From positions 8,482 through 72,481 of the forward strand of contig JASLQF010000005.1 of assembly GCA_030744625.1 (NCBI GenBank): DNA of 64,000 nt, written 5' to 3'. Source of the stretch: Rhodospirillales bacterium. Its GTDB lineage: Bacteria > Pseudomonadota > Alphaproteobacteria > Rhodospirillales > JASLQF01. The position numbers were made by a program, and so were the translations under genes. The notes below the pieces were generated by a model. It did not search any database. It was given only the letters and a program-made list of their open reading frames with translations, and was not told where the DNA came from. The number at the start of each line of letters is the position of its first letter. The first letter of the stretch is position 1. Shown here piece after piece: positions 1 to 8,037 of the stretch.

Positions 1-622
1 CGGCGCAGAGCGCCACCCGCCGGCAGGCGACGTCGCCATGCTTGGTCTTGACGCCGACGACGCGGCCGTTGGCGATGACGAAGTCGGTGACCGGGGTGTC
101 CTCGTAGATGCGCGCGCCGTTGGCCTTGGCCCCCTTGGCCAGGGCGGCGCAGACGTCGCTCGGGTTGACGCGCCCGTCGCTCGGCGAAAGCACGCCGCCG
201 ATCACGTCATCGGTATTGGCGATCGGCCACAGTCTCTGGATTTCCGCCCGGTCGACCTCTTCGACCTCGATCCCGAAGGCGCGCGCCAGCGACGCCTGGC
301 GCCGGATATGGGTGTGGCGGTCGGGGTTGGTGGCGATGCTCAGGCTGCCGCACCGGTGCCATCCGGTTTCCTGGCCCGTTTCCCGGGCCAGCGAGGCGTA
401 GAGCCGGGCGCTGTACTGGGTCAGTTGCGTGAGGGCGATGGTCGAGCGCAATTGCCTGACCAGGGCCGCCGAATGCCAGGTCGTGCCGCTGGTCAGCTTG
501 GAGCGCTCGAGCACGACGACGTCGCGGCATCCCAGGGCGGCCAGATGATAGGCGGTGGAGCAGCCGATGATGCCGCCGCCGATGACGATGGTGTCGGCCT
601 GGGAGGGAGAGACGTCGGACAT
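1..622 (-). CDS. FAD-dependent oxidoreductase, dimethylglycine/sarcosine dehydrogenase-like (N-terminal part only; gene continues beyond window start)
   Basis: Hand translation of the minus strand from the ATG at 620-622 gives MSDVSPSQADTIVIGGGIIGCSTAYHLAALG...LTSGTTWHSAALV. It has a GxGxxG dinucleotide fold and an SGTTWH flavinylation-type motif. The frame stays open to position 1. It is absent from the ORF track because it is truncated. Confidence 0.75.
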   Translation of the reverse strand, partial: MSDVSPSQADTIVIGGGIIGCSTAYHLAALGCRDVVVLERSKLTSGTTWHSAALVRQLRSTIALTQLTQYSARLYASLARETGQETGWHRCGSLSIATNPDRHTHIRRQASLARAFGIEVEEVDRAEIQRLWPIANTDDVIGGVLSPSDGRVNPSDVCAALAKGAKANGARIYEDTPVTDFVIANGRVVGVKTKHGDVACRRVALCA

Positions 623-737
623 CGGTCGGCCTTGTTTTCCCGAGGGCTTGATATCGGGAAATTCGGGTGTTTATTTTTGAAGCTGGTACTATCGTACTGG
701 AATCCATCGACTCTCTCCATGATGATCGGGCGCCGCC

Positions 738-1853
738 ATGTTCCTCAGTAACCCCGCCGTCGCCGAGCTGGAGCCGTATACGCCGGGCCTTTCCCGCGAG
801 TTCGTGTCGCGAAAATACGGCGTGCCGCTCGACGACGTGGCGAAGCTTGGATCGGCCGAGAACCCGTTGGGTCCATCACCCCTGGCCAAGGCCGCCGTCG
901 AGGCGGCGCTGGGGCGCATCGACCTCTACCCCGAGTGGACGGCGGCACCGCTCCGCGAGAAGATCGCCCAGACCTATGACGTGCATCCCGACCAGGTGGT
1001 GTGCGGCGCCGGCGAGACGGAAATCCTGTCGTGGATCATCAGGGTCTTCGCCGAGCCCGGCGGCAAGCTCCTCATGCACTCACCGACCTTTCCCATTTAC
1101 CACCTGTTCGCCGGGGCCGAGGGACGCCAATGCGTCTTCGTGCCCATGGGCGGCGATTTCGACTTCCACCTCGATCGCTTCATCGAGCACATCGCGGGCG
1201 ACGTTCGCGTCGTCTTCCTGACCCGGCCGCACAGTCCCACGGGCAAGCTGCTCGACGACGCGGACGTGCGCCGGGTGTGCGAGGCGGCCGGCGAGCGGCT
1301 GGTGGTGCTCGACGAGGCCTATATCCATTTCACCGAGACCGCGGGCGGCATCCACCTGGTCGAGGACTTCGACAACCTGATCGTGCTGCGGACCTTCTCC
1401 AAGGCGTACGGCCTGGCCGGGTTGCGCATCGGCTTCGGGATCACGAGGCCGCACATCGCGCTCCCCATGCTGGCCGTCAAGCCGACCTGGAACATGGGAC
1501 AGCTTCAGGTGGCGGGGGGGATCGCCGCCCTCGACGACCACCAACACGTTTCGCGGACCGTCTCCATGATCGTCGAGATGCGCGACTACGTGGCGGGCAG
1601 GCTCGGCGCGTTGAACAGCTTTCGCATGATCGCCGGGTCGCGGTCCAATTTCTTCCTTCTGGAAATTCTCGACACCACCCTCGACTCGACCAAGGTCTTC
1701 AACGAACTCCTGGAGCGCGGCGTCATCGTCAAGGATGGCAGCGTGTCGTTTCACGGGCTCGGCCACCGCTATATGCGGGTCGACGTGAGCTTGCGCAAGC
1801 ACATGGACCGCCTCGTCGAGGCGCTGGCCGAGATCGAGCCGCGGGCCGGCTGA
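738..1853 (+). CDS. Class I/II PLP aminotransferase, histidinol-phosphate-aminotransferase-like
   Basis: Track ORF of 371 aa. PLP-lysine motif RTFSKAYGLAGLRIG and an SAENPLGPSP N-terminal region typical of HisC-type enzymes. The true substrate cannot be assigned from sequence. Confidence 0.8.
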   Translation: MFLSNPAVAELEPYTPGLSREFVSRKYGVPLDDVAKLGSAENPLGPSPLAKAAVEAALGRIDLYPEWTAAPLREKIAQTYDVHPDQVVCGAGETEILSWIIRVFAEPGGKLLMHSPTFPIYHLFAGAEGRQCVFVPMGGDFDFHLDRFIEHIAGDVRVVFLTRPHSPTGKLLDDADVRRVCEAAGERLVVLDEAYIHFTETAGGIHLVEDFDNLIVLRTFSKAYGLAGLRIGFGITRPHIALPMLAVKPTWNMGQLQVAGGIAALDDHQHVSRTVSMIVEMRDYVAGRLGALNSFRMIAGSRSNFFLLEILDTTLDSTKVFNELLERGVIVKDGSVSFHGLGHRYMRVDVSLRKHMDRLVEALAEIEPRAG

Positions 1854-1864
1854 CCGGGACCGGC

Positions 1865-3967
1865 ATGGCACACACCACAGATTCCCGTGATGCGAACGAC
1901 GTGGCGCTGGGCACCGATGTCGGCGGCACGTTCACCGACATCCTGGCCCTCGATCTCAAGGGGGGGCGAATACTGTCGAGCGCCAAGGTCCTGTCGACGC
2001 CGCAAGACCCGTCGAACGCCGCCGTCGCCGGCGTCGACCGGCTCACCGAAGGAACGCCGTGGCGCGCCGGAGCCGTGTTTCACGGCACCACCGTCGGCAC
2101 CAACACCCTTATTCAGGGGCGCGCCGCGCTCACCACGCTGGTCACAACCGAAGGGTTCCGCGATGTGCTGGCCCTGCGCCGCCAGGCGCGGCCCCGGCTC
2201 TACGATCTCGAAGCCGTGGTGTCGCCGCCCCTGGTGCCGCGCGAACGGCGGCTCGAGGTGCGCCAGCGCATGGCCCCCGACGGCGCCGTCACCGTCCCCC
2301 TGGAGGCCGACGAGATCGCGCGGGTGGTGGCCGAGCTCGAGGAGCTTAGCGTCGAGTCCGTGGCCATTTGCCTGCTCCATGCCTACGCCAACGACGACCA
2401 CGAGAAGGCCCTCGGCGAGGCCATCGGCAAAGCCCTGCCCGACGCCTTCGTGTCGCTGTCCAGTGACGTGTGCCGGGAATTCCGCGAGTTCGAACGGACC
2501 TCGACGGTGACGGTGAATGCTTACATCGGCCCGCCGGTGCGGGACTATCTGGTGCGTTTCCGCGAACAATTGGCCGAGCGCGCCATCCCGCGCCTGTCCA
2601 TCGTAAAGTCGAACGGCGGGCTTACCTCGGCTGCTAACGCCGAGAAGTATCCGGTTCATCTCATTGAATCGGGGCCCGCCGCCGGCGTCATCGCCGCCGC
2701 CGCCCTCGGAGCCTCGGAGGGCATGGAGGACCTCATCGCCTTCGATATGGGGGGCACCACCGCCAAGGTCGGCGTGGTCGTCGGCGGCCAGCCGCGCCTG
2801 AGCACCGAATTCCACGCCAGCCGCTTCGTGGACGGCCGCGACGTCGGCGGCTACCCCATCAAGAGCCCGGTCATCGACCTTATCGAGATCGGGGCGGGCG
2901 GCGGGTCGATCGCCCGCCTGGACGCCTTCGGCGTCCTCAAGGTCGGTCCCGAAAGCGCCGGGGCAGAGCCCGGACCGGCCTGCTACGGCCGGGGCGGCGT
3001 GAGCCCGACGGTGACCGACGCCCACGTGGCGCTCGGCCACATCTCGGCCGACGGCTTCGGCAGCGAGGACCTGGATATCCAGCCCGGCCCGGCGCGCGCC
3101 GCGATCGAAAGCCAAGTGGCCGGCCCGCTGGGGTGGACGGTGGAACGCTCGGCCTGGGGCGTCCTCACCCTTGCCAACGCCAACATGGCCGAGATGGTGC
3201 GGCTGGCGACGCTCCGTCGCGGCCTCGATCCCAGGGACTTCACCCTGGTCGCCTTCGGCGGCGCCGGGCCGCTGCACGCCACCGAGATCGCCCGCGAGGT
3301 TGCCGTCCCCAGGGTCGTCGTTCCCCCCTATCCGGGCCTGTTCAGCGCCATTGGCACGGTGCTCGGCGACATCCGCCACGACCTGGTACAGACCCTGTTG
3401 AAGCGCACCGACGAACTGGAGCGCGCCGACGTGCAGGCGGCCTTTGCCGGGCTCGAGGAGCGCGCCCGAAAGCTGCTCGCCGAGGAGGACCTGGCGCCCG
3501 GGCATGGCGCCCCCGTGCTCGACCGCTACGCGGACCTGCGCTTCGAAGGTCAGATGTTCGAAATCACGCTTGTCCTGGAGGGCCCGGAGGCGCTCGCCGC
3601 CGACGCGCTCGACGCCACCTTCCGCGGCGCCTACGTGCGCGACTACGGCTACGACCTGCCGGAGCACGCCGTCGAGCTGGTCAACCTGCGCCTCGTCGCC
3701 ACGGTGCCGATCTGGGACGGCGGTTGGCCGACGACCGGCGCCGACAACCCGTCCAAGCACCGCCAAGCGGCCAGGCGGCGAAAGCGCCAGGTGTTCCACC
3801 CCGACGGCCGGGCCTTCGACATCGATGTCATTCCGCGCTACACACTGAGCGCGGGAGAGCGCATCGACGGCCCCGCCATCGTCGAGGACTTCGGCGCTAC
3901 CATACGCATCCTCGACGGGCAGGTGGCCGAGGTGCGGGCGTCGGGCACCCTGGTCATCGAAGGGTAG
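1865..3967 (+). CDS. hyuA: Hydantoinase A / 5-oxoprolinase A-type ATP-dependent cyclic-amide hydrolase subunit
   Basis: In-frame ATG at 1865 inside track ORF 1001..3967; the upstream 288 codons are Arg/Pro-rich read-through overlapping the aminotransferase gene. VALGTDVGGTFTDILAL is the family N-terminal ATPase motif. Length is about 700 aa, as expected. Confidence 0.85.
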   Translation: MAHTTDSRDANDVALGTDVGGTFTDILALDLKGGRILSSAKVLSTPQDPSNAAVAGVDRLTEGTPWRAGAVFHGTTVGTNTLIQGRAALTTLVTTEGFRDVLALRRQARPRLYDLEAVVSPPLVPRERRLEVRQRMAPDGAVTVPLEADEIARVVAELEELSVESVAICLLHAYANDDHEKALGEAIGKALPDAFVSLSSDVCREFREFERTSTVTVNAYIGPPVRDYLVRFREQLAERAIPRLSIVKSNGGLTSAANAEKYPVHLIESGPAAGVIAAAALGASEGMEDLIAFDMGGTTAKVGVVVGGQPRLSTEFHASRFVDGRDVGGYPIKSPVIDLIEIGAGGGSIARLDAFGVLKVGPESAGAEPGPACYGRGGVSPTVTDAHVALGHISADGFGSEDLDIQPGPARAAIESQVAGPLGWTVERSAWGVLTLANANMAEMVRLATLRRGLDPRDFTLVAFGGAGPLHATEIAREVAVPRVVVPPYPGLFSAIGTVLGDIRHDLVQTLLKRTDELERADVQAAFAGLEERARKLLAEEDLAPGHGAPVLDRYADLRFEGQMFEITLVLEGPEALAADALDATFRGAYVRDYGYDLPEHAVELVNLRLVATVPIWDGGWPTTGADNPSKHRQAARRRKRQVFHPDGRAFDIDVIPRYTLSAGERIDGPAIVEDFGATIRILDGQVAEVRASGTLVIEG

Positions 3968-3973
3968 AAAAGA

Positions 3974-5629
3974 ATGGCACGCCGGGACCAGACCATCATT
4001 GCAAGCGACCCGGTAACGTTCGAGGTCGTGCGCGGCGGGCTCTACGCCATCTGCGAGGAGATGAAGTCGGTGATGACCCGCGCCGCCTTCTCGCCCCTGC
4101 TCAGCCTGTCCGCCGACCTCTCCTGCGCGCTGCTCGACGCCGACGGGGACGTGGTGGCGCAGGGCAACGATATCCCGGTCCACCTGGGCGCCATGCCCTT
4201 CGCCGCCAAGGGCGTCCTGGCGCGCTTCCCCGTGGACGACTGGCGGCCCGGCGACGTGGTGCTGTCGAACGACCCCTATTGCGGCGGCTCGCACCTCCCC
4301 GACATGACCATGGTGACGCCGATCCACGACGGGGCGCGCGTCCTCGGCTTCGCGGCGAGCCGCGTCCACTGGCCCGACATCGGCGGCTCGGCGCCGGGCA
4401 GTTCGGCGGTGACCGACGAGATCATCAAGGAGGGACTGCGCATTCCGCCCATCCGGGTGGCGCGCGGCGGCGAGGTCGATGACAACGTGGCCACCCTGCT
4501 GTTCGCCAACGTGCGGGTGCCCGGCGACCGCCTGGGTGATTTCAAGGCGCAGATCGCGTGCAACGGGCGCGGCGCGGAGCGAGTCGGCGACCTTATCGCG
4601 CGCTATGGCGGGGACTCCATCGGCAAGATATTCGCCGAGACCCAGGATTACAGCCAGCACATGGTGAGACAGGCGCTCGCCGCCATTCCCGACGGCACCT
4701 ACACGGCGGCCCAGCACCTCGACGGCGACGGCTTCATCGAGGACACGGGAAACGGCCCGCTCAGGATCAACGTGGCGATTACCAAGTCGGGCGACTCTCT
4801 GAGCTGCGACTTCTCCGGCACGGGCCCGCAGGCAACGGGCCCCATCAACGCGCCGATCTCGGTGACGGCATCGGCCTGTTACTATTTCACCCTGGCGTTG
4901 AGCGGCGGCGACGTGCCGCCGAACTCCGGGGCCTACCGGCAGGTCGACGTGATCGCGCCCCAAGGCAGCCTGGTCAATTGCACCTACCCGGCGCCCGTGG
5001 TATCGGGCAACACGGAAATGTCCAATCGTCTCGTCGATCTGTTGTTCGAGGCCATCGCGCCCGCCGTTCCCGAGGCCGCCATCGCCGGCAGCTACGGCAC
5101 GGCGGGGATATGCGCCTTCGGTGGCTGGGATGAGGCCAGGGGCCGCCATTTCGTGCACGTCGAGTCGCTCGGCGGCGGCATGGGCGCTTCGCGGAGCGGT
5201 CCCGGCCTCGACGGCCACCGCACGCACATGGGCAACACCATGAATCTTCCCGTGGAGGCGACGGAAGCCACCTGTCCGGTAAGAATCGAGACCTACGCCC
5301 TGGTCGACGGCAGCGGCGGCGAGGGCGCCTGGAGGGGCGGCATGGGGGTGCGGCGCGTGCTTCGGGCGCTTGGCGACGATGTACGGTTTTCGCTCCTCTT
5401 CGAACGCACCCTCCATCCCGCCCACGGCGCCGCCGGCGGCGGCGCGGGGCGTACCGCGCAATTTTTCGCCGAGCGCGCCGACGGCACCCGCCAAGGCCTG
5501 TCGTCGAAGACCGCCGTCGGCCATCTCAGGCGCGGCGAACTGTTGTGTATGGAAACGGCGGGCGGCGGTGGATGGGGAACCCCCGACGCCGCCACGATTG
5601 AAATAGATGGAAAAGATGGGGAGTCTTAG
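3974..5629 (+). CDS. hyuB: Hydantoinase B / 5-oxoprolinase B-type subunit
   Basis: Track ORF of 551 aa. It starts DPVTFEVVRGGLYAICEEMKSVM, the conserved HyuB N-terminus. It begins 6 nt after the hyuA stop. Confidence 0.85.
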   Translation: MARRDQTIIASDPVTFEVVRGGLYAICEEMKSVMTRAAFSPLLSLSADLSCALLDADGDVVAQGNDIPVHLGAMPFAAKGVLARFPVDDWRPGDVVLSNDPYCGGSHLPDMTMVTPIHDGARVLGFAASRVHWPDIGGSAPGSSAVTDEIIKEGLRIPPIRVARGGEVDDNVATLLFANVRVPGDRLGDFKAQIACNGRGAERVGDLIARYGGDSIGKIFAETQDYSQHMVRQALAAIPDGTYTAAQHLDGDGFIEDTGNGPLRINVAITKSGDSLSCDFSGTGPQATGPINAPISVTASACYYFTLALSGGDVPPNSGAYRQVDVIAPQGSLVNCTYPAPVVSGNTEMSNRLVDLLFEAIAPAVPEAAIAGSYGTAGICAFGGWDEARGRHFVHVESLGGGMGASRSGPGLDGHRTHMGNTMNLPVEATEATCPVRIETYALVDGSGGEGAWRGGMGVRRVLRALGDDVRFSLLFERTLHPAHGAAGGGAGRTAQFFAERADGTRQGLSSKTAVGHLRRGELLCMETAGGGGWGTPDAATIEIDGKDGES

Positions 5630-5632
5630 CTC

Positions 5633-6373
5633 ATGTCCGATAACCCAAGCGGCGCGACCACCGGCAACCGGCCCGATTCCAGGGCCCGGGTGGCACTGCT
5701 CGTGCCGTCGTCGAACACGGTGATGGAGAACGATCTCCACGCCGCCCTGCCCAAGGACCGCGTCACCGTCCACACGGCCCGCATGTACCTGACCGTAACG
5801 ACGCCCGAGGCCGAGGAGCGCATGATCGATCAAGAAGCGCCGAAGGCGGCCGACGATCTGGGCACGGTCAACCCCGACGTGCTGGTCTTCGGCTGCACGT
5901 CGGGGGGATCGCTCCATGGACTGGACTACGACGCCAAGGTGTGCGGCGACCTTGGCCGGCGCGCCGGATGCCCGGCGATCGGCGTCATCAGTTCGGTCTT
6001 GGCGGCACTCGGGCGCCGCAAACTCAGCACCGTCGCGGTGATTACGCCCTACATCGATTCCCTGACCGAGGCTGTGGCCGGCTCGGTCAGGGAAAGTGGT
6101 ATCGAGGTGGTGGCGGCGCACGGCATGGGCATCGACGTCAACGTGGCGCTGGCCGATCCGACGCCGGACGAGATCGCGGAATTCGCCAAGCAGCGGCTGA
6201 GCGGCCTGACCTTCGACGGGTTGTTCGTGTCATGCACCAATTTCCGCTCCGTCGAGGCCATCGGCCGGCTCGAGAAGATTTTCGGCTGTCCCGTGGTGAC
6301 CAGCACTTCGGCCACCATAGAAGCGCTGCGCGGGCACCTCGGGCTTGAGGCACCGACGCCGAAGGGAGGGTAG
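5633..6373 (+). CDS. Asp/Glu/hydantoin-racemase superfamily protein (maleate isomerase / arylmalonate decarboxylase-like, two-Cys type)
   Basis: Track ORF of 246 aa. VALLVPSSNTVMENDL motif and two catalytic-type cysteines (VFGCTSGG, FVSCTNFR). It starts 3 nt after the hyuB stop. Confidence 0.7.
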   Translation: MSDNPSGATTGNRPDSRARVALLVPSSNTVMENDLHAALPKDRVTVHTARMYLTVTTPEAEERMIDQEAPKAADDLGTVNPDVLVFGCTSGGSLHGLDYDAKVCGDLGRRAGCPAIGVISSVLAALGRRKLSTVAVITPYIDSLTEAVAGSVRESGIEVVAAHGMGIDVNVALADPTPDEIAEFAKQRLSGLTFDGLFVSCTNFRSVEAIGRLEKIFGCPVVTSTSATIEALRGHLGLEAPTPKGG

Positions 6374-6375
6374 CG

Positions 6376-7230
6376 ATGACACAACTGAACCCGCTCGCCG
6401 TGCACCCCGATCCGGGGTCCATCCGGACCGGCCTCGAGGCCCGCCGGCTGTTCCGCGACGCCAAGACCGATCCGTTCACCCAGACGACGGGAATGGCGTT
6501 GGGCTACATGCAGGCCAGTCCCATAATCCTGCCCGGCGATCTGGCCCTCGACTTCACCGCGTTTTGCCAACGCAACCCGAAGCCCTGCCCGCTGGTTGCC
6601 ATGTCGAACCGCGGCAGCCCGACCCTGCCCACCCTCGGCGGCGATTTGGACCTGCGCACCGATCTCGCCGGCTACCGCATCTGGCGCGACGGGGAACTGG
6701 TCGACGAAGTGACGGACATATCGGAGCTGTGGCGGGAGGATTTCGTCGCCTTCGCGGTCGGCTGCTCCTATTCCTTCGAGAACGCGCTGCTCAGCGACGG
6801 CATCGAGCTTCGCCACATCACCGAGGAGGCTTGTGTGCCCATGTACATGACCGACATCGCGCTCGAGCCCTCGGGGCCGTTCGCGGGCCGCATGTGCGTG
6901 TCCATGCGGCCGCTGAAAGCCAGGGACGCGATCCGGGCGATAGAGATCACCAGCCGCTTTCCCACGACCCACGGCACGCCCGTTCACATCGGCGATCCGC
7001 GCCAGATCGGCATCGAGAATCTGGACGAACCCCTGGCCGGCGACCCGGTGGAGGTGCGCGACGGCGAGCTTTGCGTTTTCTGGGGATGCGGCATAACGCC
7101 GCAATACGCCATGCTCCAGGCCAAGCCCGAGATCGCCATCACCCACATACCGGGCTGCCTGTTGATGACCGATGTTCCGTCGCGCGGCGACGCCATGGAC
7201 CTGCCCAACCTGCCCAACCTGGCGGCCTGA
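6376..7230 (+). CDS. DUF1445/UPF0317 putative hydro-lyase (D-glutamate cyclase family)
   Basis: Track ORF of 284 aa. Family blocks remembered by eye: FCQRNPKPCPL, VSMRPL, HGTPVHIGDP, VFWGCGITPQ. It starts 2 nt after the preceding stop. Confidence 0.75.
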   Translation: MTQLNPLAVHPDPGSIRTGLEARRLFRDAKTDPFTQTTGMALGYMQASPIILPGDLALDFTAFCQRNPKPCPLVAMSNRGSPTLPTLGGDLDLRTDLAGYRIWRDGELVDEVTDISELWREDFVAFAVGCSYSFENALLSDGIELRHITEEACVPMYMTDIALEPSGPFAGRMCVSMRPLKARDAIRAIEITSRFPTTHGTPVHIGDPRQIGIENLDEPLAGDPVEVRDGELCVFWGCGITPQYAMLQAKPEIAITHIPGCLLMTDVPSRGDAMDLPNLPNLAA

Positions 7231-7248: not shown

Positions 7249-8037
7249 CTATTCCTTGGGAATCCAGATGAGCGTCGCGACCTCCCCGTCGCTCGCGCAG
7301 AGCTCCGCGAGAACGGCGGCGGTGACGCGCGACGGCGTCACCCCATTGACCATCACCCTGCCCGAGCCGACCAGATCCCACGCCGCGCTGACGCAGGCCT
7401 GACGCGGCACCGCTTCGGCGGTGATGGTGAAGGCGGTGACCGTCTCGCGGACCTTGAGGGCGCCCCCGTACACATGGGTCAAAGGCCCCGCGCCACGGGC
7501 GGCAAGCCTCATCTCGTCCACCAAAAGCGACGCCGGCGGCAACTCTTCTTGCAGGCTCGACCAATAGGCTACGGCGGCGACACCCGAAACGGCGATTACG
7601 CCAAGCACCGCCATGGCGACCCAGCGCGGCACCATCGGTTTGCGTTCCTGGATAACGACACGCCGCTCTCCGCCCTTCTTGGCCTTCTTGGGCTTCTTGC
7701 GGACGGCGTGGCTGGCCAGTTGGGCGACCTTCTGTTTGCGCTCCTCCTTGATGCTGCGCATCAGCTCGATGACGCCGTCGCGCAGGGCGTCCAGGTTCGC
7801 CGGGGAAGCGTCTTCGGGTACGATGACGTTCAGTTCGGCGGTATACTTCGAGACGTTCGGGCGGTCGTCCTTGCGGGCGAAGAGCTTCTGGATGATGACG
7901 GCGGCGCTGCCCCTGAGCACGTCCGGTGTCTGCGCCCGGGAGATCAGGGCAATGAAACCCGAGGTCTCGTCCTCGAACGCCGCTTCCCAGAACGCGGCGT
8001 CTTGCACCATTGGACGCGACGATTGCTCGGCGGCCAT
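7249..8037 (-). CDS. Hypothetical single-pass membrane protein
   Basis: Track ORF of 262 aa. Soluble N-domain, Lys-rich linker (KKPKKAKKGGERR), one hydrophobic helix (WVAMAVLGVIAVSGVAAVAYW) and a C-domain of about 100 aa. No family recognised. Confidence 0.55.
   Translation of the reverse strand: MAAEQSSRPMVQDAAFWEAAFEDETSGFIALISRAQTPDVLRGSAAVIIQKLFARKDDRPNVSKYTAELNVIVPEDASPANLDALRDGVIELMRSIKEERKQKVAQLASHAVRKKPKKAKKGGERRVVIQERKPMVPRWVAMAVLGVIAVSGVAAVAYWSSLQEELPPASLLVDEMRLAARGAGPLTHVYGGALKVRETVTAFTITAEAVPRQACVSAAWDLVGSGRVMVNGVTPSRVTAAVLAELCASDGEVATLIWIPKE

Follow-up and report, generated by a model that had tools for sequence, protein, structure and literature searches.

In the 64,000-nucleotide stretch of a Rhodospirillales contig analysed here (the window), five co-directional genes encode an aminotransferase (AT), the two subunits of an ATP-dependent lactamase (HyuA and HyuB), a two-cysteine protein of the racemase superfamily (Rac) and a DUF1445 protein, with the gene for a DMGDH-like flavoprotein divergent from them. 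Our preferred reading, which we hold tentatively and with slightly less than even confidence, is that the locus is a lineage-specific assembly of a modular catabolic system around a distinct HyuAB orthogroup, and that this system would act on both enantiomers of a pyroglutamate-type lactam. The features concerned are listed below in window coordinates.

1..622, minus strand: DMGDH-like flavoprotein, N-terminal 207 codons, the remainder lying upstream of the window
623..737: divergent intergenic region of 115 bp, with one sigma-70-like site at 648-677 on the plus strand
738-1853, plus strand: AT, a HisC-type class I/II pyridoxal phosphate (PLP) enzyme, 371 aa
1865-3967, plus strand: HyuA, ATP-binding subunit of a hydantoinase/oxoprolinase-family ATP-dependent lactamase, 700 aa
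3974-5629, plus strand: HyuB, hydrolytic subunit, 551 aa
5633-6373, plus strand: Rac, from the two-Cys maleate-isomerase/AMDase branch of the Asp/Glu/hydantoin racemase superfamily, 246 aa
6376-7230, plus strand: DUF1445/UPF0317 (YcsI-type) putative hydro-lyase of the D-glutamate-cyclase family, 284 aa

The open reading frame coordinates confirm the arrangement given in the initial annotation, that is, five plus-strand genes separated by gaps of 11, 6, 3 and 2 nt. Purine-rich, Shine-Dalgarno-like stretches precede hyuB, rac and the DUF1445 gene, and terminator-like sites within the five-gene unit showed no excess over shuffled sequence. The gene identities assigned there were also correct, as indicated by Pfam and NCBIfam profile matches for all five proteins, each of which retains the motifs that define its family.

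HyuA contains the domains PF05378 (Hydant_A_N, 147 bits), PF01968 (Hydantoinase_A, 295 bits) and PF19278 (Hydant_A_C), and HyuB matches PF02538 (Hydantoinase_B, 588 bits, E 2e-176). With PF05378, PF01968 and PF02538 far over their cut-offs and the two genes adjacent, 6 nt apart, the pair belongs to the HyuA/HyuB family. The ATP motifs of HyuA (DVGGTFTD at 18-25, DMGGT at 294-298 and GAEPGP at 366-371) correspond to the P1, P2 and adenosine motifs of CapA (PMC8453981). In HyuB, SHLPD at 106 and HWPD at 132 resemble, by position and motif match only, the metal ligands His99, Asp102 and His124 of CapB, which are defined in the same work on CapAB (PMC8453981).

In a tree built with MAFFT and FastTree, the window HyuB falls in a 10-member clade (support 1.0), apart from the fused OPLAH-like clade and the other paralogues. 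This clade holds every locus with the recurring AT, Rac, DUF1445 and DMGDH-like genes, which therefore appear as accessories of one enzyme. HyuAB is 30–33% identical to the fused OPLAH-like type, too distant for an OPLAH orthologue, and its scores against the caprolactamase models NF050156 and NF050157 (462 and 264 bits) are well below the cut-offs of 1000. The best PDB match of HyuB is 7HK5, a fused chain named N-methylhydantoinase (E 1e-77). Given the separate clade and the low caprolactamase scores, HyuAB belongs to no clade of known specificity. It does not cluster with a clade of known specificity unrelated to oxoproline, a condition set by the initial annotation, but it is not of the OPLAH type either, so that plain L-5-oxoproline is not the obvious substrate.

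The host genome, an 88%-complete metagenome-assembled genome (MAG) of 3.2 Mb, contains nine HyuAB-type loci, and PxpABC was not found in it. It also encodes a fused OPLAH-like HyuA-HyuB protein of 1208 aa (G000:C44:174131-177757; L155), divergent from a GntR/UTRA regulator gene and 61% identical to the fused form that adjoins DUF1445 in other Alphaproteobacteria. This fused gene is the likelier L-5-oxoprolinase of the genome. A sample of 400 Alphaproteobacteria yielded one HyuB orthologue (61% identity), and none of 400 genomes sampled from the phylum contained a Rac orthologue at E <= 1e-50. Species representatives thus seldom carry the system, and its context is drawn mostly from metagenome contigs.

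To describe this context we pooled the loci reached through DUF1445 homologues and through Rac homologues with 63 metagenome loci reached through HyuB, and two lineages emerged. Lineage I, whose HyuB is 52–58% identical to that of the window and which includes Acuticoccus mangrovi, a Bradyrhizobium strain and an Alcaligenaceae strain, presents a MocR-type regulator and a TRAP or ABC importer, followed by AT-HyuA-HyuB-Rac. Rac is found in 12 of the 15 lineage-I loci with downstream DNA, its start often overlapping the hyuB stop, and the lineage-I loci showed neither a DMGDH-like gene nor an adjacent DUF1445 gene. An AA_synth gene (PF06684) paired with Amidohydro_1 recurs near AT-HyuA-HyuB-Rac in two of them (L157:10728-12532 and L158:18392-20213).

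Lineage II, to which the window belongs (HyuB 65–100% identical), spans alpha- and gammaproteobacterial MAGs. A DMGDH-like gene flanks HyuAB in most of its loci, and an RpiR-type regulator often separates that gene from hyuA. About 13 of 20 lineage-II loci carry DUF1445, placed downstream of hyuB, divergently from hyuA, or directly behind the DMGDH-like gene with an ABC importer following. What comes after hyuB varies: Rac, DUF1445, a class IV aminotransferase or a TauD dioxygenase can occupy this slot. Among the transport proteins, the TRAP binding protein has only a distant relationship to binders of C4-dicarboxylates and the Liv-type one of locus L011 is close to 3I45; the PDB matches named no ligand.

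Rac and DUF1445 occur together only in the window lineage (L014, L159 and L218; 94–97% protein identity) and, in swapped order, in L169. Two close relatives, L150 and the P0131 locus, present the same DMGDH/AT-HyuA-HyuB-Rac layout without DUF1445, L150 being collinear with the window up to the end of rac at 88% nucleotide identity. The idea that the five genes form one conserved pathway unit is accordingly not borne out; the full set of five is confined to the window lineage, with copies 95–97% identical. Instead, the absence of DUF1445 from L150 and the P0131 locus, together with the absence of the RpiR gene from the window, indicates that the five-gene operon is a recent assembly of separately recurring parts. 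A convergent orphan gene on the minus strand of the window (7249-8037, 262 aa), with no Pfam or NCBIfam match, occupies the equivalent position in L150 and in the P0131 locus, right after rac, DUF1445 being absent there.

The AT matches PF00155 and the hisC model TIGR01141 (287.6 bits, only just over the cut-off of 276.55), its presumed PLP lysine being Lys222 within TFSKAYG. Orthologues (53–96% identity) sit ahead of hyuA in lineage I and in several lineage-II loci, and a paralogue, a second HisC-like gene with 28–30% identity, is found at C56 of the same genome. Aminotransferases from three families (PF00155; PF00266 in L010; PF01063 in L164 and L168) are present in most loci of the HyuAB orthogroup, which suggests that amine removal is an integral step.

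Rac matches PF17645 (Amdase, 62.5 bits) and PF01177 (33.8 bits against a cut-off of 31). Its Cys88 and Cys201 align with the two catalytic cysteines of maleate isomerase 4FQ7 (the variant 4FQ5 is without the second), so both catalytic cysteines are present, as had been claimed. The PF17645 match and the cysteine pair place the protein in the maleate isomerase/AMDase branch, and it shares SSN (at 26) and TPY (at 138) motifs with maleate isomerase. Rac is not an EutA equivalog, scoring 83 bits with TIGR02990 against 318. Besides the lineage-I loci counted above, its orthologues (50–94% identity overall) follow hyuB in L150, the P0131 locus and L169.

The DUF1445 protein is matched over its full length and above the cut-offs (PF07286, 192.9 bits; NF003969, 'putative hydro-lyase', 352.8 bits against 324), and it retains all 37 invariant columns of a 26-sequence alignment (A1). 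No loss of conserved residues, which would have marked an inactive protein in the initial annotation, was found in this alignment. Cys71, Cys130, Cys238, His199, His257 and Arg178 are conserved in at least 106 of 110 sequences (the three cysteines in 106–109), and residues beside the conserved motifs are altered in the subfamily of the window. Membership of the D-glutamate cyclase family therefore stands; the cyclase activity itself is an annotation transfer from the mouse enzyme, a fusion of DUF1445 with DUF4392 in which catalysis was never traced to one of the domains (PMC5339696). A literature search found no paper on the function of bacterial DUF1445 proteins.

The structure model of the protein (pLDDT 92.8) matches 2PIF with a Z of 32.5. 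Outside its own family, the model resembled only an NrpR-like domain (3NEK, Z 9.6), with every other match below a Z of 5, so that the fold gave no mechanistic lead. In the secondary structure of the model, Cys130 and Cys238 each lie directly after a beta-strand and before a helix, a predicted placement that would be typical of cofactor-free racemases.

In a tree of the same 110 sequences, built as for HyuB, the 16 copies that accompany lineage-II HyuAB group together to the exclusion of all others (support 1.0), which argues for long co-residence with HyuAB and not for chance adjacency. Every copy at least 63% identical to that of the window adjoins an orthologous HyuAB, so the HyuAB-DUF1445 pairing, whose conservation had been in question, is indeed conserved. 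The association extends to more distant relatives. DUF1445 is a large family (3803 clusters were matched in one search) and is carried by 62 of the 400 sampled Alphaproteobacteria; from these we inspected 60 loci of different species, all at most 58% identical to the window copy, up to 9 kb from the gene. In 26 of these 60 loci the gene adjoins an ATP-dependent oxoprolinase-type enzyme of one of two unrelated kinds (fused HyuAB in 14, split HyuAB in 4 and PxpABC in 8), and 31 contain a TRAP transporter. Firmicutes loci combine DUF1445 with PxpA, PxpB, PxpC and an NRAMP gene, as around B. subtilis ycsI, and P0249 is a natural fusion of LamB/YcsF (PxpA) with DUF1445 (547 aa). A second fused protein, P0248, joins DUF1445 to a TRAP DctP binding protein (548 aa) and could be a gene-calling artefact.

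The host genome has a second DUF1445 paralogue (49% identity; G000:C29, L060:12252-13085), located between two PALP-family PLP enzymes, a Zn-dependent alcohol dehydrogenase and a 2-oxoacid:ferredoxin oxidoreductase, with a further HyuAB pair about 6 kb away. Two related alphaproteobacterial genomes contain three to four DUF1445 paralogues in tandem (L106:8113-12412 and L098:7991-13305), flanked by three distant Rac-like genes (26–31% identity), HyuA and two HyuB, a class V aminotransferase, an HpcH-type aldolase and two polysaccharide-deacetylase-family genes. These tandem paralogues suggest substrate diversification within DUF1445.

The divergence of the operon from a DMGDH-like flavoprotein gene, already described in the initial annotation, is borne out by the flanking DNA. 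There the gene is complete on the minus strand (L009:6650-9103, equivalent to G000:C5:6650-9103), starting at window 622, 115 bp from the AT start, and it encodes an 817-aa protein with DAO, FAO_M, GCV_T and GCV_T_C domains. These four domains in one protein constitute the DMGDH/sarcosine dehydrogenase architecture, and the protein reached no NCBIfam equivalog cut-off. No other full-length DMGDH-like copy was found in the genome. Of 18 distinct lineage-II loci, 13 have an orthologue (61–95% identity) beside HyuAB, and in L011-type loci the gene runs in the same direction as DUF1445 and an ABC importer. In the breakdown of N-methylhydantoin and N-methylpyrrolidone, flavoenzymes N-demethylate what ring opening releases; by analogy, the DMGDH-like partner of lineage II points to a possible N-methyl group on the substrate or the ring-opened product.

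The spacer between the two divergent genes varies. In L159 and L014, which are 95% identical to the window at the nucleotide level, a 1098-bp segment with an RpiR-type gene (HTH_6 + SIS-like; L159:4651-5748 and L014:1557-2654) replaces window positions 608-724, where the window and L150 have only about 115 bp. The regulator has thus been gained or lost between close strains. Just past the DMGDH-like gene lies an ankyrin-repeat gene, both here (L009:3150-6623, plus strand) and in the related locus L150 (L150:1-1558), and ankyrin-repeat genes are also found near the DUF1445 gene in L010.

The sequences establish the gene identities, the intact catalytic motifs, the orthology and the sets of genes that recur; from this gene content we infer a substrate, a target for Rac and a direction for the DUF1445 reaction. 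Mechanistically, HyuAB would use ATP to open a pyroglutamate-type lactam carboxylate to the matching amino dicarboxylate, the candidate substrates being 5-oxoproline, its D-form, or an N-methyl or ring-substituted analogue. This type of compound is favoured by the link between DUF1445 and oxoprolinases and by the TRAP importers. AT would then convert the ring-opened amino acid to a 2-oxo acid, while the two genes after hyuB would handle the 'wrong' enantiomer: Rac may interconvert the D- and L-lactam (the amino acid is a less likely target), and the DUF1445 protein may interconvert the D-amino acid and the D-lactam without ATP. The DMGDH-like enzyme, in turn, would strip the substrate, or the amino acid left after ring opening, of an N-methyl group and pass it to tetrahydrofolate. 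Class IV aminotransferases include D-amino-acid aminotransferases, and the sharing of the slot after hyuB by Rac, DUF1445 and a class IV aminotransferase would fit alternative solutions for the D-enantiomer.

Several points weigh against this reading. The sequences as such give no substrate identity, and Rac is by sequence nearest to maleate isomerase, an enzyme that isomerises a C=C bond instead of racemising. A DUF1445 protein that cyclised the same enantiomer that HyuAB opens would form a futile pair with it. About 10 lineage-II loci carry DUF1445 without Rac, and since DUF1445 is missing in close relatives, it must be dispensable for the core pathway. The fused OPLAH-like gene may already cover L-5-oxoproline, and glutamate needs no dedicated aminotransferase, which speaks for a substituted analogue. 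Finally, the TauD, Amidohydro_2, AA_synth and Amidohydro_1 neighbours are not accounted for.

Within the modular reading, one proposal gives the DUF1445 protein a more definite function. Rather than a dedicated cyclase, it could be the ATP-independent D-enantiomer partner of an L-specific, ATP-dependent ring opener, with the activity of a reversible 5-oxo-D-prolinase or of a thiol-based epimerase. Such parallel work on the D-form would also avoid the futile pair described above. Our argument is thermodynamic: the large cellular pool of L-glutamate means that opening the L-lactam needs ATP, whereas with a small D-glutamate pool opening the D-lactam would not. We regard the proposal as speculative and probably wrong in this specific form. 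Were it true, Rac, DUF1445 and the class IV aminotransferases would be interchangeable solutions to one problem.

The other explanations differ in how much of the locus they take as one pathway. In a strict inversion of D- to L-glutamate, the DUF1445 protein would cyclise D-glutamate to 5-oxo-D-proline, Rac would convert this to 5-oxo-L-proline, HyuAB would open it with ATP to L-glutamate, AT would produce 2-oxoglutarate, and N-methyl-glutamate would enter by way of the DMGDH-like enzyme. This scheme, the strict form of the idea in the initial annotation, is one particular case of the modular reading. Its logic parallels a D-glutamate route that reportedly proceeds through N-acetylation, racemisation and deacetylation. 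Each enzyme receives a reaction of a known class, all the parts are present in the window lineage and in L169, across bacteria DUF1445 is associated with oxoprolinases and with loci for pyroglutamate-type transport, and L-pyroglutamate is a known marine substrate (PMC11485210). However, most loci with DUF1445 and a HyuAB of this orthogroup are without Rac and most Rac loci are without DUF1445; HyuAB is distant from the fused OPLAH-like type, which the genome also encodes; and a dedicated glutamate aminotransferase is unneeded. The DUF1445 protein belongs, moreover, to a separate subfamily with residues altered near the conserved motifs, and the catalytic domain of the animal cyclase is not assigned. 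On balance we find the strict inversion unlikely.

Catabolism of an N-methyl lactam, to which we give a similarly low probability, overlaps with the modular reading and shifts the weight to the divergent gene: HyuAB would release an N-methyl amino acid, the DMGDH-like enzyme would demethylate it to tetrahydrofolate and AT would deaminate the product, with Rac and DUF1445 as optional side-branch enzymes. The frequent flanking of HyuAB by the DMGDH-like gene in lineage II and the single full-length copy in the genome agree with this, as do the TauD-type dioxygenases that replace or join the DMGDH-like gene in some loci; both known routes also pair HyuAB with an N-demethylating flavoenzyme. On the other hand, lineage I, with its MocR, TRAP and Rac genes, has no DMGDH-like gene, in the window that gene diverges from the operon and is not co-transcribed with it, and DUF1445 receives no clear role. 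We also know of no abundant natural N-methyl lactam carboxylate.

It is very unlikely, in our judgement, that there is no single pathway, with only AT-HyuA-HyuB-Rac forming a unit and DUF1445, and perhaps the DMGDH-like gene, being recent independent neighbours. Relative to L150 and the P0131 locus, DUF1445 is indeed an indel at the 3' end, RpiR is variably present, and the genome has nine HyuAB loci and a second DUF1445 in an unrelated context. Against this, the lineage-II-linked DUF1445 copies form the exclusive clade described above, consistent with long co-residence; their link to HyuAB persists through rearrangements (after hyuB, divergent from hyuA, after the DMGDH-like gene); and in the window the DUF1445 gene starts 2 nt after rac with its own purine-rich Shine-Dalgarno-like stretch.

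The use of 5-substituted hydantoins in the manner of Pseudomonas sp. NS671, with Rac as hydantoin racemase, HyuAB as ATP-dependent hydantoinase and AT consuming the amino acid, would suit the NS671 gene arrangement hyuA-hyuB-hyuC-hyuE, in which a two-Cys racemase-superfamily gene accompanies hyuAB, and the name of the best PDB match of HyuB; it is highly improbable, as the window operon, its flanks and most related loci have no N-carbamoyl-amino-acid amidohydrolase, Rac stands nearer to maleate isomerase/AMDase than to the PF01177 hydantoin racemases, and the lineage-I TRAP transporters imply a carboxylate substrate. We also dropped a creatinine/N-methylhydantoin route (neither a deaminase nor a carbamoylsarcosine amidase is present, and an aminotransferase would have no part in it), opening of the 2-oxoglutaramate lactam (a two-Cys enzyme cannot act on a proton-free carbon) and an ectoine-type route (scores far under the cut-offs).

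Returning to the modular reading, its interest lies in the fact that most ATP-dependent lactamases are without an assigned function, nine HyuAB loci being present in this genome alone. The modular map provides hypotheses for a HyuAB orthogroup, a DUF1445 subfamily, a maleate-isomerase-like protein and a DMGDH-like paralogue, and cultured carriers of one module exist (Acuticoccus mangrovi, Bradyrhizobium sp. dw_78 and the Alcaligenaceae strain). If the substrate resembles D- or N-methyl-pyroglutamate, the system would bear on the bacterial recycling of D-amino-acid-derived and methylated dissolved organic nitrogen. If DUF1445 is the D-partner proposed above, this HyuAB orthogroup would represent an undescribed bacterial route for racemic or N-methylated pyroglutamate-type compounds.

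The initial annotation held that the operon matches no characterised pathway, and our literature search agrees, having found none, nor any description of a cluster of HyuAB, Rac, DUF1445 and DMGDH-like genes. Parts of the layout do recall known systems. Ectoine and hydroxyectoine clusters share the combination of a TRAP or ABC importer, a MocR regulator (EnuR/EhuR), the racemase-like EutA and an aminotransferase, serving a cyclic amino-acid derivative; EutA is the best NCBIfam match of Rac, at the score given above, and the lineage-I MocR protein is nearest to EhuR (365 bits, far under the cut-off of 480). There the ring is opened by DoeA, whereas here it would be opened by the ATP-dependent HyuAB, and EutB, EutC and DoeB-D genes are absent. 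The animal enzyme DGLUCY shares the PF07286 domain (PMC5339696), but is a fusion, unlike the single-domain bacterial protein. In the pxpA(ycsF)-ycsG-ycsI-pxpB-pxpC cluster of B. subtilis, DUF1445 likewise adjoins an ATP-dependent ring opener; in the window the partner is a different HyuAB orthogroup, with its own DUF1445 subfamily and with AT, Rac and the DMGDH-like protein in addition.

In Pseudomonas sp. NS671, hyuAB stands together with hyuE, the gene for a two-Cys hydantoin racemase. The likeness lies in an ATP-dependent HyuAB accompanied by a two-Cys racemase-superfamily protein, with both enantiomers of the cyclic amide used. The cluster type differs: the window operon and the related loci examined contain no carbamoylase (N-carbamoyl-amino-acid amidohydrolase), Rac belongs to the maleate-isomerase/AMDase branch, and AT, DUF1445 and the DMGDH-like protein are extra. 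The NS671 enzyme appears in the alignments of the caprolactamase study (PMC8453981).

That study concerns the closest functional parallel for the core of the operon, the caprolactam pathway of Pseudomonas jessenii, in which the CapAB caprolactamase is followed by an aminotransferase (PMC8453981, PMC6061476). Both systems have a two-subunit HyuA/HyuB-type ATP-dependent lactamase with shared P1/P2 motifs and deamination by an aminotransferase. The aminotransferase is of the HisC type here and of the omega-aminotransferase type there, the vicinal Cys-Cys of CapB was not seen when the unaligned window HyuB sequence was read by eye, and the caprolactam pathway is without racemase-like, DUF1445 and DMGDH-like partners. 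ATP-dependent lactamase operons with an aminotransferase (caprolactam), a racemase (NS671) or an N-demethylase are thus of known kinds; what is new in the window and its relatives is a distinct HyuAB orthogroup with modular accessories, a dedicated DUF1445 subfamily and a consistent DMGDH-like partner.

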